Assembly: GCA_016699145.1 (NCBI GenBank)
Contig: CP064962.1
Coordinates: forward strand, 1,080,001 to 1,112,000
Reading direction: 5' to 3'
DNA from: Candidatus Saccharimonadota bacterium
GTDB taxonomy: Bacteria > Patescibacteriota > Gracilibacteria > UBA1369 > 2-02-FULL-48-14
DNA length: 32,000 nucleotides
The stretch's first letter is position 1; each line of letters opens with the position of its first letter. Under the pieces are notes generated by a model, which saw only the letters and a list, made by a program, of their open reading frames with translations, did not search any database and was not told the origin of the DNA. Positions 19,920 through 29,447 of the stretch are shown here, one piece after another. Made by a program: the position numbers and the translations under genes.

Positions 19920-20453
19920 ATGGCAAAACAAAAACAAAATTCCCCAGAGAACCTGGAGGAAAAAGCACAAAACATCAATGCGTTTGAAAATGCGCTGTTC
20001 AGGTGGAAAACGCCCCGTTATTTGCGCTACGAACGCGGTTGGATGTGGTTTGTCTTCATGTTTGCAAGCTGTGCCGGCTTGGCTTTTTATGGCTACCGCA
20101 CCGAATCCCTCACCATGATGGGGGTCTTCGCCCTACTGCCTTTGGTGCTCTTGCTCGAACACCGAAAGAAGCCGGAATGGGTGGAAGTGGTGATCTCGGA
20201 ATACGGCATTCGTTTTGGAGAAATGACCTTGCCCTTCAGTGGCATGAGCCGGTTTTGGATACTTCACAACCCTCCTTACCTGAACGAATTGCACGTCGAA
20301 ACCGAAAGCAAAATGCACAAAGAATATGTGATACAAATGTTGAACATAGATCCAACTCAAATCCGTCAATACTTGGCCACTCAAGTGCCGGAATGGGAAG
20401 GCAAACATCTCAGCCTTTTGGACACTTTAACTCGTATTCTCAAACTGAACTGA
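19920..20453 (+). CDS. hypothetical 2-TM membrane protein (cluster gene A)
   Basis: 177 aa. Two adjacent hydrophobic helices (WMWFVFMFASCAGLAFYGY and LTMMGVFALLPLVLLL) are followed by a small soluble domain. Its stop abuts the next start. Confidence 0.65.
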   Translation: MAKQKQNSPENLEEKAQNINAFENALFRWKTPRYLRYERGWMWFVFMFASCAGLAFYGYRTESLTMMGVFALLPLVLLLEHRKKPEWVEVVISEYGIRFGEMTLPFSGMSRFWILHNPPYLNELHVETESKMHKEYVIQMLNIDPTQIRQYLATQVPEWEGKHLSLLDTLTRILKLN

Positions 20454-22013
20454 ATGACTGACAAATTTCAAAACAACCGGGAAGAAGCCGAATTGCAAAA
20501 CAATCAAAAAGCCGCTCAAAAAGAAGCGGCTGCCATCGGTGGACGCCTAACGTCCATTAAAGATGCAGCCGGGGACTACGGGGCCGTCAAGAATCAGTTC
20601 AATGCGGTTTATAAAGCCAAAGCCCAAGAATTGATGCGTGAACTTGACTATTTGCGGGATCTTTTGGACCTACGTCGCATCGAAGACATTCAAAAAGCCA
20701 TTTTGCAATCCTTGCACAGCCGCTGGGCACTCATCTTGGAAATGACAGAAAATGCCACCGATCCTCACCTTCAAATCAGTCGTGGGATCAACATCCTCCA
20801 GAGCCTTTCTGTGCCTTCTCTCGTTTACGAACACTTGGTGAAGCAAGGAGACAAAACAGCCGCTGCTGCTTACCTCGAAAAACTGGGAAAACGTGGAGAA
20901 GAACTGCTGCCCGATTACAGTAAAATCGCAGAACGTATTCAAAAAAATGAACTCACCCGCGAAGATGTCCAAAAACTCGCTCAACTCAGCGAAGGCTTGG
21001 GGCGGAAAAAAACCGATTGGATTCAAGAAGGAGTGTCCGTCAGCTTGCTGCGCCTGCTCACGGAGTCTCAAAAAGTCTCTTTGATAGGAGAAATAGTGAA
21101 AAAGCCCAATGCGCAAGCCATTTTAGATCCTCTCTTGCTGGGAGGATACATTCAAGTGGCGCAAGTTTCCGGCACGATAGAAGCGCGACTGAAAACCGAC
21201 ATGGACTCTAAAGAACGAAAGCATTTAGAAGCTTTACATGTGCATGTGCAAGATCCAAAAATGGCCCAAGCACAAGCAGAAATTGAAGAAGCCGTGCAGA
21301 AGGAAATGGCAAAAAGAGGCCAGGGAGGCCGCTCTTTCGGTAGCGTCAACCATGCACGCCAACTGCTCACTTTCAAAGGGATAGGAGGAACTTTATTGGC
21401 CATCAATGGAGCGACAGCCACGTTTGCAAACGTTTTAATGAACATTCATCAACCCGCTGAACTCTTGGGCAACCCTGCATTGGGAATAGCGATGGCTATG
21501 ACTGTGGGAGGCTTGGAACTCAGTCAGGGAGTGGGAGGCTTAATGGATAAACCCACCGAAAATTTGGCTCAATGGGTTGAGAAAATCGATGATGGTGTTC
21601 AAGGAAAAGATAAAACCGAAGACCTCGCAATCCAGATGAAAAAGATGAATTTGGAAAAAAGCATTTTGCGTGGAGGGCCAATACGTAAGATTTACTTACA
21701 ATTCGCCGAGCAAATCAATGCGGCTTACGAAAAGAAACGAACAGCGCTGCACAACTCCGACGTTGATATCAGCTTCGAAGAAATGGAACTGGATGGGGAA
21801 GGAATAAGCAAAGCATTCAACATTCCAGCCGCAAACAAAATGCAAGTTGAAAGCACAATATCAAAATGGGTTAAACAAATGGCAGCTGGAGAAAATAAAA
21901 TGTCCGTTGAGTCACAAAAGGATTTCATGGGTAAAGCATTGGAAGAGAAATACGCCTTAGCTCACTATGCACCTTTGTCTGAAGAAGAAGAAAACAAATT
22001 GCTCCTCACCTAA
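20454..22013 (+). CDS. hypothetical protein, helical with a Gly-rich hydrophobic hairpin (cluster gene B)
   Basis: 519 aa. The ATG immediately follows the upstream TGA. The central hydrophobic segment is GIGGTLLAINGATATFANVLM...LGIAMAMTVGGLELSQGVGGLM. No motif recognised. Confidence 0.7.
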   Translation: MTDKFQNNREEAELQNNQKAAQKEAAAIGGRLTSIKDAAGDYGAVKNQFNAVYKAKAQELMRELDYLRDLLDLRRIEDIQKAILQSLHSRWALILEMTENATDPHLQISRGINILQSLSVPSLVYEHLVKQGDKTAAAAYLEKLGKRGEELLPDYSKIAERIQKNELTREDVQKLAQLSEGLGRKKTDWIQEGVSVSLLRLLTESQKVSLIGEIVKKPNAQAILDPLLLGGYIQVAQVSGTIEARLKTDMDSKERKHLEALHVHVQDPKMAQAQAEIEEAVQKEMAKRGQGGRSFGSVNHARQLLTFKGIGGTLLAINGATATFANVLMNIHQPAELLGNPALGIAMAMTVGGLELSQGVGGLMDKPTENLAQWVEKIDDGVQGKDKTEDLAIQMKKMNLEKSILRGGPIRKIYLQFAEQINAAYEKKRTALHNSDVDISFEEMELDGEGISKAFNIPAANKMQVESTISKWVKQMAAGENKMSVESQKDFMGKALEEKYALAHYAPLSEEEENKLLLT

Positions 22014-28800: not shown

Positions 28801-29447
28801 ATAAAATTTATGGGCGTGGACCGATGAGCACCGCCGATCACTTGGACATCATGCGCAAATACTTCGCAAAATTGGATGTAGACCCTGCAGGCACCAACCT
28901 ATTAGGCAAGTTGTTCAGCAATCAACTGAAGACCGAAGCAGACATCCAAGCGGTCATGGTGCCTCTATTTCGAAATCATAAAAACGCCTTCGGAAAAGAA
29001 AAGACAGCCAAAGATTTCAAGACGGTAGAAGACATTTATCGCAACTTGGGAGCCTACATCGACTACGCAATTCAACAGGATTATCCTTTAAGGAATTTCT
29101 TGGGTGCTATTAAAGAAGATCATCGCAGAGCCAAGGAAGACGGTACTGGAAAGGACATTGGAAAAATCCGCGCACATGCCAAAGAACAACGCATGGCATT
29201 CAAGCAAGAATTCGCAGCCCAAATGCAGAGAAACGAAATGGAGGAACCCGATCACCACGCCCATCACGGACATGGCCATGGAGACGATCATGGACACGAT
29301 GAGCATGGCGAAGCTCCTCATGGAGCTCATCCACCTGCCGCTCACCGCAGTACAGACCCTATCCCACCAGTCAGCGCCTCTCGTGATTTTGGAACTGGAG
29401 CCGGTGGTTTTTTCAATCGCCTCTACGAAGAACAATTTCCAAACTAA
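25767..29447 (+). CDS. very large hypothetical protein with a His-rich C-terminal tail (cluster gene E); the true start is probably downstream of the track ATG
   Basis: 1226-codon ORF. The track ATG at 25767 lies inside a predicted RNA helix. Alternative in-frame starts are GTG 25830 (with SD GGAG) and ATG 25920. The C-terminus reads DHHAHHGHGHGDDHGHDEHGEAPHGAHPPAAH. No motif recognised. Confidence 0.8.
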   Translation: MIRCHNHYRLTQKNLFLGEEIVLFARTPDDDDDGGTPAGATPIGATAVPKLMRGNENSNIRVPKEARDRAEHKSKLWDEMAHMVPERTEYLPQFTTDGKKVGPGEGNAMEIMEDWLKSLADANEIQSYIGRISKWEEELKNPEKLTDDTAVRFKDRYKEVYSELMSIRKLAPAIQLPGMGIDYKALEAKARAQTEPTTAEILEDLAKFKKALVEQRKVALELLHERAVRDFERRLNYIKKEWGTNPPKGYEIGKDQWIATCNAFLEEARKMPKFDSDNPDFPEGSAVFDRLKRLWGGVNNLELNLASFREGQKEGGALNAQGLKNRLDEIIAKKNKVFNQKTYGEKHDQSFDDWHHGIIKDVLARIDEVIPLYENRVKNEVGNQSAVDEYCHLKNNLEEVSAQAEADPNDEAINTQKKKLQKEVEGFESRHHLNKEKMEVLQHLAGLKSLRGSIEKSGNLGEIFEKAIYNKETYRPVEGNIPYPKGIEAQLDWITKVNVSPEQRNQMFFRFNQVLDTLDKDIEGAENYVQTKLGVNLFKKINTLKYDLEYKPAENKWKIHWMSGFKTYDTVAHTVTSIFERSWKRDDQLKAGMWGKEAFKFLDKVPIPIDSLKPIRELHAEMANEEEHAMMEDISHWSKQYEHASVAHVTHQMHVTKNKFEFRACIEHLCKKGLMRLLDDEAFFKQLNRFQTSVSVPVSKFWHSENRFDSEDVIKKAVFAMYADIDLFDTWHSQNSGAIKSEGGKYNEEFSQIANVPGGVFKLAKKLLDDYKQDIANPAKHGQSDIDPNKYEAALHYAIDNGKMNAEDVLYLLLQGIACGLLSFDRSAIFTGKNNNYPAIEILDDATEDGNAKPTLQNIKEWAKIGEDYDKNYNEYLDWFHSFVMTNEKVVQRVNKAQSQGMRFDHDYFTGFAGHLNSSTIESMLQMKGDGGMGLQVTAMQNGAVGMLFSLDSLAESYGDLGSRGGAILSQMVDSIIRFDAILNARMYANQSQYYKIDNATLNGNPRYAGAYKIYGRGPMSTADHLDIMRKYFAKLDVDPAGTNLLGKLFSNQLKTEADIQAVMVPLFRNHKNAFGKEKTAKDFKTVEDIYRNLGAYIDYAIQQDYPLRNFLGAIKEDHRRAKEDGTGKDIGKIRAHAKEQRMAFKQEFAAQMQRNEMEEPDHHAHHGHGHGDDHGHDEHGEAPHGAHPPAAHRSTDPIPPVSASRDFGTGAGGFFNRLYEEQFPN

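Follow-up and report, generated by a model that had tools for sequence, protein, structure and literature searches.

What do five adjacent genes do when none of their products resembles a known protein, and do they belong to one system? This question is raised by a locus of Candidatus Saccharimonadota bacterium, in a stretch of 32,000 nucleotides (nt) of contig CP064962.1 (assembly GCA_016699145.1, positions 1,080,001 to 1,112,000 of the forward strand), which is referred to below as the window. Its plus strand carries five consecutive open reading frames (ORFs), namely p1 (positions 19920-20453; 177 amino acids, aa), p2 (20454-22013; 519 aa), p3 (22022-23230; 402 aa), p4 (23232-25616; 794 aa) and p5 (25767-29447; 1226 aa). 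A first account of this DNA, made without database searches (hereafter the sequence-only reading), had placed these ORFs between the terminator of rpsR and a convergent thrS. Their coordinates and strand were confirmed, as were the gaps of 0, 8 and 1 nt between p1/p2, p2/p3 and p3/p4; the spacer between p4 and p5, given as about 150 nt, measures 150 nt. The analysis shows that this cluster is a vertically inherited, core-genome feature of Peregrinibacteria/Peribacteria, and that it encodes a membrane-associated protein set without detectable relatives. The explanation that we favor, with a probability of about 0.5, is that the proteins form a membrane-anchored complex on the cytoplasmic face.

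Conservation of the five-gene cluster

Homologues of p4, at 60% to 37% identity, were found on four contigs from Logan/ENA/JGI (loci L001-L004, with called genes), each of which carries rpsF-ssb-rpsR, five size-matched genes and a convergent thrS. A scan of one genome per species yielded 45 further loci, labelled Peribacteria or Peregrinibacteria except for one Altimarinota. The sequence-only reading had staked its case on conserved synteny, and this is what was found: gene order and strand are kept across about 45 species-level genomes, even where the flanks differ, with p4 identity falling as low as 25%. Hidden Markov models (HMMs) of the five families detected p1 in 44 loci, p2 in 41, p3 in 29, p4 in 50 and p5 in 45, with order and strand constant; these totals count the window itself and two duplicate loci, and contig ends account for most of the absences. 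Where divergent loci escape the HMMs for p2 and p3, the slot between p1 and p4 is nevertheless filled, by two ORFs of comparable size or, in L047 and L049, by one. These last two loci have other flanking genes and a complete cluster; that is, the cluster remains intact despite changed flanks, and thus travels as a unit. The ORFs cannot be put down to chance, given that homologues of all five, in a constant order, are present in dozens of genomes. Within p1-p4 the genes are separated by 0-8 nt or overlap, a tight spacing that suggests translational coupling.

The five proteins had also been proposed to belong to an undescribed system, and no curated family or solved structure was found to match any of them. 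Nothing reached threshold in Pfam or NCBIfam, or when Pfam was searched with each member of the family alignments separately. The absence of recognizable nucleoside triphosphatase (NTPase) motifs, noted earlier by eye, was borne out by Pfam and NCBIfam, in which no NTPase family matched the five proteins. Profile searches of all PDB sequences, using the five families and a broad p5 alignment, returned compositional or coiled-coil matches only. Neither the p4 membrane domain nor the conserved domain of p5 had a tblastn match on 72,556 plasmids, and the latter had none among 50,697 phage records. Nor did any protein fall into an unrelated, well-known family with confidence, whether by profile (all five) or by AlphaFold modeling and Foldseek (p4 and the p5 domain).

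A two-gene core formed by p1 and p5

An exhaustive HMMER search with the C-terminal domain of p5 yielded 400 clusters at 50% identity (E<=1e-3), 288 of them with E<=1e-10. By comparison, a word-indexed protein search with p5 had found p5 only and a profile query one fragment, a result that reflects a gap in the collection and not a true absence. Many members of the p5-domain family are 1450-1930 aa long. All those looked up are "hypothetical" or nameless proteins, and the named organisms are Peribacteria, Peregrinibacteria or "Gracilibacteria". Metagenome loci encoding large p5 variants were then fetched (31 in total, 20 with enough upstream sequence). In 20 of these 20, a p1 homologue (E 1e-29 to 1e-42) lies directly upstream of the giant p5 variant (1450-1835 aa), abutting or overlapping it, and p2, p3 and p4 were not found in these two-gene loci. 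The neighbours of the two-gene form are housekeeping genes, i.e., dut, ftsZ, ftsA, a 5'-3' exonuclease gene, dnaA and thrS. Since p1 and p5 are adjacent without p2-p4 in other lineages of Peribacteria, we conclude that p1 and p5 are the older core pair, and that p2-p3-p4 is an insertion characteristic of the window's lineage. The five genes are thus not the indivisible set that they had been taken for.

Several other features were observed in the two-gene loci. Three tandem T4SS_pilin (PF18895) genes, one with two pilin domains, directly follow the giant p5 homologue in L054 (15361-16772), and the same tandem arrangement is found in L052, L055, L058, L067 and L079, all from a single branch of the two-gene loci. 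A second branch (L062, L063, L068, L073 and L082) has one pilin gene, about 8 kb downstream. Upstream in L054 (1926-7839), a 184-aa signal-peptide protein with an LPYTG sortase motif precedes a signal-peptide protein of 1788 aa. We considered this pair as a paralogue of p1/p5 and rejected it; an LPxTG protein and a signal-peptide giant are unrelated to p1 and p5. Lastly, the large p5 variants contain a conserved HExxH-like segment (alignment A8, P0103 residues ~950-1011), in which the E and the second H are invariant and are followed by an invariant E downstream. This motif was dropped as a feature of p5, as its first H is inconsistent and it is absent from the p5 of the window and of L054.

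The giant protein p5

p5 has no hydrophobic segment, and consists of three regions. The N-terminal half (25767-27443, plus strand) is poorly conserved, helical and coiled-coil-like, with low column identity and occupancy; its PDB matches are to generic coiled coils only (the SMC3 arm, dynactin and apolipoproteins). As to whether p5 is an SMC-like or other NTPase-driven coiled-coil machine, a Walker-type ATPase head was not found in it, and the SMC3 match is confined to the coiled-coil arm. The conserved C-terminal domain (residues 560-1130; 27444-29156, plus strand) is compact and all-helical. Its AlphaFold model, based on a 68-sequence alignment, has a mean predicted local distance difference test score (pLDDT) of 93.7 and a predicted template-modeling score (pTM) of 0.90. 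A Foldseek search with this domain gave a best PDB match with E 0.067 and a TM-score of ~0.15, and nothing significant among viral models. The C-terminal tail (29157-29447, plus strand) is variable, rich in His, Asp and Gly, and of low alignment occupancy.

Across the wide p5 family, G802, R893, K896 and D905 are invariant, and H906, D907, E792 and K803 are nearly so. This pattern of charged residues suggests a putative binding or catalytic site.

The membrane protein p4 and its likeness to type IV secretion proteins

p4, for which 49 homologues were found, begins with an N-terminal signal-like segment ending AHA|E, which is followed by a polytopic domain. The membrane domain (residues 60-470), with 65-86% column identity, is the most conserved part of the cluster, and includes two invariant cysteines, C197 and C235, in an acidic loop of ~140 aa. 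The AlphaFold model of p4 is helical throughout (pLDDT 74.7). The architecture predicted by the sequence-only reading held for most of the cluster, i.e., for two transmembrane helices in p1, a hairpin in p2, a tail anchor in p3, a signal-bearing polytopic p4 and a soluble p5. It failed for the tail of p4, which had been described as one continuous coiled coil; this tail is variable and helical, and ends in a four-helix bundle (676-792) modeled with pLDDT above 90. No significant match to the p4 model was found in the PDB with Foldseek; the top matches are generic four-helix bundles, which presumably align with the tail.

In its general layout, p4 resembles the VirB6/TrbL family (PF04610), e.g., R388 TrwI, and the Gram-positive analogue TcpH of pCW3. 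Common to them are an N-terminal signal sequence, several transmembrane helices and a large loop, with an extended tail at the C terminus, and TcpH, with 832 aa, is similar to p4 in size. However, we detected no supported similarity of sequence, profile or fold. Three of 36 p4 homologues match the TrbL/VirB6 profile colinearly, over ~100 residues and profile positions 80-190 of 215, with scores of 16-17 bits against a cutoff of 25.9 (E 0.004-0.009), and the p4 of the window does not match it. TrwI/VirB6 chains of R388 appear in the Foldseek results for p4 with E 2.5-3 and TM-scores of 0.13 on the query and 0.30-0.31 on the target. In hhalign, the probability of a relationship with TrwI or with TcpH is <1%, as it is for the controls TetA(P) and TerC, and the assignment of p4 to VirB6 is thus unproven. 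TraA matches in 11 of the 36 homologues were judged non-specific, because the two that were examined coincide with the TrbL matches on one hydrophobic stretch.

p4 also contains two hairpins, at residues 100-150 and 328-385, each consisting of a hydrophobic helix, a GGGG turn and a K-rich hydrophobic helix, which look like those of T4SS_pilin (PF18895)/VirB2-type proteins. The genuine pilins of the two-gene branch score 34-37 bits with PF18895, against a cutoff of 26.6, and hhalign aligns the p4 profile with them at residues 328-380 of p4 (P=0.0047, probability 7%). This likeness is nonetheless within the range of controls. The pilin HMM scores p4 with E 3.7, at decoy level among 5079 ORFs, and so the hairpins were rejected as pilin domains. 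Nor do they qualify as an internal duplication, as control segment pairs within p4 score similarly (hhalign P 0.012-0.04). Genes for VirB4, VirD4 or other components of a type IV secretion system (T4SS) were found neither within 10 kb of the cluster in L001-L004 (called genes) nor in the window (Pfam), and the same applies to VirB8-like genes nearby. There are no pilin genes near the five-gene clusters; the PF18895 genes that follow a p5 homologue directly belong to one lineage. In addition, p1, p2, p3 and p5 have no T4SS counterparts. The sub-threshold profiles, the control-level hhalign results and the absence of T4SS genes nearby thus lend no support to placing p4 among the VirB6 or pilin proteins, and a very distant relationship is a minor possibility.

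The proteins p1, p2 and p3

p1 has two adjacent hydrophobic helices, at residues ~41-59 and 61-82, of which the second was scored computationally and the first read from the sequence, and a conserved C-terminal domain of ~95 aa. In size and layout it corresponds to the small membrane proteins of the bPH_2/DUF304 type (DUF6232, DUF5673 and DUF3093), which combine two transmembrane helices with a C-terminal PH-like domain; every match to these families, however, is sub-threshold. DUF6232 is touched in this manner by 7 of 35 members of the p1 family (best E 3.8e-4), and others touch DUF5673 or DUF3093. The p1 family profile has no match in the PDB. Judging from the sequence pattern, the C-terminal domain may adopt a PH-like fold.

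p2 is helical, with a conserved hairpin at residues ~300-365 that is rich in Gly, Asn and Pro and moderately hydrophobic (conservation profile of family alignment A3). The p2 family has no Pfam or PDB match; a weak match of p2 to spectrin repeats was seen. In L047, the single 590-aa ORF that occupies the slot between p1 and p4 matches the hairpin region of p2 with E 2e-4. p3 comprises a conserved N-terminal globular domain (~1-230), then a helical linker that is variable and, near the C terminus (~372-398), a single transmembrane anchor (alignment A5); its family likewise has no Pfam or PDB match. Membrane-interacting segments are thus present in four of the five proteins, and each of the five contains 0-6 cysteines.

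Promoters and a structured leader RNA upstream of p5

The promoter of p1-p4 was located at 19873-19901 on the plus strand, with a -35 element TTCCAA, a 17-nt spacer and an extended -10 element TGgTAAAAT. TGnTAAAATAA and the p1 start context CGTATGGCA are invariant in 9 loci, and the remaining intergenic sequence is not conserved. A second promoter lies within the spacer between p4 and p5, at 25626-25654 on the plus strand, and was also found by a promoter scan; it consists of a -35 element TTTACA (25626-25631), a 17-nt spacer and an extended -10 element TGcTACTAT. Here CTTTACAAAAA and GATGnTAC are invariant across 10 loci, and the DNA of the whole 150-nt gap is far more conserved than the surrounding genes.

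The p5 promoter is followed by a structured leader RNA of ~115 nt (25655-25772, plus strand) that has three helices and reaches the p5 AUG at 25767. In P1, GGUGAU (25686-25691) pairs with AUCACC (25753-25758). The long hairpin P2 (25693-25735) varies at its apex, and P3 is a hairpin at ~25732-25749. RNAalifold independently gave P1, the outer part of P2 and P3; the inner stem of P2 was added by inspection, and a covariance model (R1) was then built. Over 1.24 Mb of related loci, R1 found one match per locus in 23 loci, always on the plus strand between p4 and p5. The leader in the window scores 117 bits; among the other matches are a full-length copy absent from the seed (L022, 74 bits) and four copies that are divergent or partial. 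In the leader alignment 95% of the cells are paired, and 13 of 27 pairs show compensatory double changes, compared with 5.6 +/- 1.4 in shuffled alignments (13 is attained in 0 of 500) and 2-5 in slid registers. Covariation was seen in all four leader helices. In 19 full-length copies the promoter is directly upstream and the p5 AUG is 9 nt past P1; the transcription start is a predicted one.

Given the promoter in the spacer and the covarying leader, we conclude that there are two transcription units, p1-p4 and p5, and that p5 is probably a separately regulated unit with its own post-transcriptional control. The view of the cluster as one tightly coupled five-gene unit has to be modified accordingly. 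In distant five-gene loci (among L019-L049) the gap between p4 and p5 is 0-120 nt and R1 has no match. The leader and the long spacer are therefore restricted to closer relatives, and the regulatory element arose within the group.

In its promoter, its length and the position of its closing helix next to the start codon, the leader is similar to three-way-junction riboswitches and protein-binding leaders, e.g., those of ribosomal-protein genes, as it is in having two covarying hairpins that branch off, invariant internal loops and one apex of variable length. It differs from known riboswitches and leaders in that it belongs to no Rfam family and precedes the gene of a giant orphan protein, rather than a metabolic or transport gene. 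Specifically, none of 4227 Rfam families matched at the gathering threshold, and an E-value threshold gave spurious eukaryotic matches only, with E above 1. A small ORF inside the leader was rejected, as its ATG is missing in four loci and insertions are not multiples of three. We also observed that the strands of P1 (25685-25691 and 25752-25760) resemble a Shine-Dalgarno/anti-Shine-Dalgarno duplex, in that AUGGAUGGUGAU differs little from AAGGAGGUGAU, and CAUCACCCC little from the 3' end of 16S rRNA, GAUCACCUCC. The p5 AUG has no Shine-Dalgarno sequence. The resemblance may be coincidence or part of the regulation.

Boundaries of the cluster and other features of the window

Upstream of the cluster are rpsF, ssb (Pfam matches for S6 and SSB) and rpsR (19583-19801), the last of which was read from the sequence and placed through synteny with Ribosomal_S18 genes of related loci. 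The upstream boundary is the intrinsic terminator of rpsR (approximately 19829-19857, plus strand), AGTCCCGCTCTCGACAGCGGGATTTTT, in which a hairpin precedes a T-run; rpsR has an equivalent hairpin behind it in L001, L002, L012 and L016. Downstream, thrS (29444-31252, minus strand; Pfam) converges with p5, and both stop codons lie in a 4-nt overlap, which leaves no space for terminators between the two genes. L001-L003 share this 4-nt overlap, and the overlap of the called genes in L004 amounts to 38 nt. The guanine-cytosine (GC) content of the cluster, 0.42-0.49, is like that of the genome, and no integrase, repeats or tRNA were found at its borders.

Other parts of the window deviate in composition or in gene content. 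mutS is distributed over two ORFs in different frames (10608-11375, MutS domains I-II; 11405-13249, domains III-V) and is a single gene of 857-873 aa in L004, L025 and L030; the split represents either a frameshift, in a pseudogene or programmed, or an assembly error. This region (10608-13249) has the highest GC content of the window, 0.52-0.54. A stretch of low GC content (3770-8725; 0.32-0.39) adjoins tRNA-Arg(CCT) at 2996-3070, and contains a gene for a D12-class N6-adenine DNA methyltransferase (3770-4840) followed by four ORFs without a Pfam match. It could be a restriction-modification or other accessory island. Between the gene for a TrmB regulator and rpsF is that of an AbiEii-family nucleotidyltransferase toxin (17598-18389), with an overlapping 190-aa ORF upstream (region 17084-18389) that may encode its antitoxin; other small genes take this position in L001-L003. 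Just past thrS (31432-31945) is a pair of overlapping ORFs, one of which encodes an HTH_32 domain, a helix-turn-helix of the transposase type; the pair may be the remnant of an insertion sequence.

Discussion

How might these proteins work together? The signal peptide of p4 is the only one in the cluster, and we therefore expect the C-terminal domain of p1, all of p2, the bulk of p3 and all of p5 to be cytoplasmic. In the mechanism that we propose, the five proteins would act jointly on the cytoplasmic side of the membrane. p4 would be the conserved transmembrane core, with its Cys-bearing loop as the only substantial external part, and p1 would tether p5 to the membrane. The helical proteins p2, through its hydrophobic hairpin, and p3, through its tail anchor, could bridge the cytoplasmic tail of p4 and p5. 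The invariant Arg/Lys/Asp-His-Asp cluster of p5 may serve as a binding or catalytic site, perhaps for a phosphorylated small ligand, and the leader RNA would tune the translation of p5 according to a signal, which could be a metabolite or a protein encoded by the cluster itself. The housekeeping neighbourhoods of the loci (ribosomal genes, thrS, dnaA, and ftsZ/ftsA), together with the retention of the genes throughout the group, favour a basic role in the envelope or in cell organisation over an accessory one.

Several points weigh against this mechanism. Sequence features and the adjacency of the genes are the basis on which the complex, the anchoring of p5 by p1 and the cytoplasmic placement were deduced. 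An external position of the p4 loop is suggested by its invariant Cys pair, yet simple helix counting does not put it there. The invariant residues of p5 could be structural, and the housekeeping neighbours may reflect mere stable synteny in small genomes. With regard to the leader RNA, its alignment was fitted to the covariance model, which favours structure, and the folding energy of the single sequence is no better than that of shuffled ones (z = 0.19). A candidate alternative pairing of the 5' segment CACCCUCC with GGAyGGUG shows no covariation and was rejected.

The mechanism must also be compared with other explanations of the locus. It is unlikely, in our view, that the cluster is a very divergent membrane platform for type IV secretion or a conjugative pilus, in which p4 would be a VirB6/TrbL-like channel and the other proteins lineage-specific accessories. 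The general VirB6 layout of p4 would fit this idea, as would the colinear TrbL/VirB6 matches in three homologues, the TrwI/VirB6 chains among the Foldseek results, the three genuine PF18895 genes directly after the giant gene in one two-gene branch and the hhalign P value of 0.005 between the p4 profile and those pilins. Each of these leads weakens on inspection, however: the TrbL scores stay under the cutoff, the hhalign values for TrwI and TcpH equal those of TetA(P) and TerC, the VirB6 structures match with E values above 2 and low TM-scores, and the pilin HMM scores p4 at decoy level, with control segments of p4 giving similar P values. The lack of T4SS genes within 10 kb in L001-L004, of pilin genes near five-gene clusters and of any plasmid match to p4 points in the same direction. 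The sequence-only reading had suggested an envelope-spanning apparatus with a surface, attachment or secretion-like role; its use would then be contact with host cells. Peribacteria are regarded as symbionts with a heavy investment in proteins of the envelope and of attachment (PMC4736985), the membrane-interacting segments of four proteins would be in keeping with such an apparatus, and the acidic p4 loop with its Cys pair would suit an external domain. We nevertheless consider this improbable. p2, p3 and p5, which make up ~2150 of the 3118 residues, have no signal peptide, and most of the protein mass is thus probably cytoplasmic, which speaks against an apparatus at the surface. None of the five proteins shows a cell-wall anchoring motif or adhesin repeats or is a secretion ATPase, no secretion ATPase is encoded within 10 kb in L001-L004, and the VirB6 and pilin tests remained at control level. 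Moreover, the large extracellular proteins of Peribacteria are exported, Cys-rich and variable between strains (PMC4736985), whereas the five proteins are neither rich in Cys nor variable in gene content.

A different objection is that the five genes are not one system, and are neighbours only through the stable gene order of small, rarely recombining genomes. The flanking genes (rpsF-ssb-rpsR, thrS, and those for TrmB and asparaginase) are indeed likewise syntenic in many of these loci, p5 is preceded by a separate promoter, and p2-p4 are dispensable where p1 and p5 are kept. Distant lineages, however, change the flanks (L047, L049 and the two-gene loci) and keep the order and strand of the cluster; the short gaps or overlaps within p1-p4, and the abutment of p1 and p5 in the two-gene form, indicate coupled expression; and the five proteins, four of them membrane-associated, are limited to the same taxa. 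This explanation is, on balance, scarcely probable either. Least of all do we believe in a mobile or defence island inserted beside rpsR, an idea suggested by accessory genes elsewhere in the window, i.e., the AbiEii toxin gene, the methylase gene (4-6 kb, low GC) and the HTH_32 ORFs (31.4-31.9 kb). The GC content of the cluster is that of the genome, the same locus is found in dozens of species with a divergence that tracks that of the species, the borders are free of integrase, repeats and tRNA, and there are no phage or plasmid relatives.

EzrA and DivIVA are membrane-anchored coiled-coil scaffolds of monoderm bacteria. By analogy, the large helical, membrane-anchored proteins of the cluster, which lack an NTPase, may be likened to these scaffolds and to the cytoskeleton of the Mycoplasma attachment organelle; the location of the two-gene form near ftsZ/ftsA and the weak spectrin-repeat match of p2 fit this analogy. 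No similarity of sequence or profile to these scaffolds was detected. We found neither the cluster nor the leader RNA described in the Peribacteria genome paper (PMC4736985), the protein-family survey of the Candidate Phyla Radiation (PMC6744442) or the Gracilibacteria proteogenomics study (PMC11452946), and none of the papers in the collection that was searched names both Peregrinibacteria and riboswitches. The defining features that were tested for the VirB6/TrbL, pilin and NTPase families were lacking, and the PH-like character of p1 appears at sub-threshold level.

The Candidate Phyla Radiation comprises a large share of bacterial diversity, and much of its conserved gene content has no known function. 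In the organism considered here, a block of 9.5 kb, nearly 1% of a genome of 1.3 Mb, is retained across a group at class-to-phylum level, and it therefore probably does something that the cells need. More tentatively, the cluster could be an unrecognized membrane machine found throughout the Peregrinibacteria, built from folds without relatives, with its giant subunit under the control of a new riboswitch-like class of RNA, and carrying out a basic task in the envelope or in cell organisation that the standard toolkit cannot perform in these reduced, host-dependent bacteria. The p1-p5 core, the conserved p4, the 570-aa domain of p5 with its candidate active site and the compact, covarying leader are now testable objects, and the leader RNA can be probed for ligands in vitro without culturing the organism. 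Should the leader prove to be a riboswitch, the identity of its ligand would be a direct clue to what the system does.

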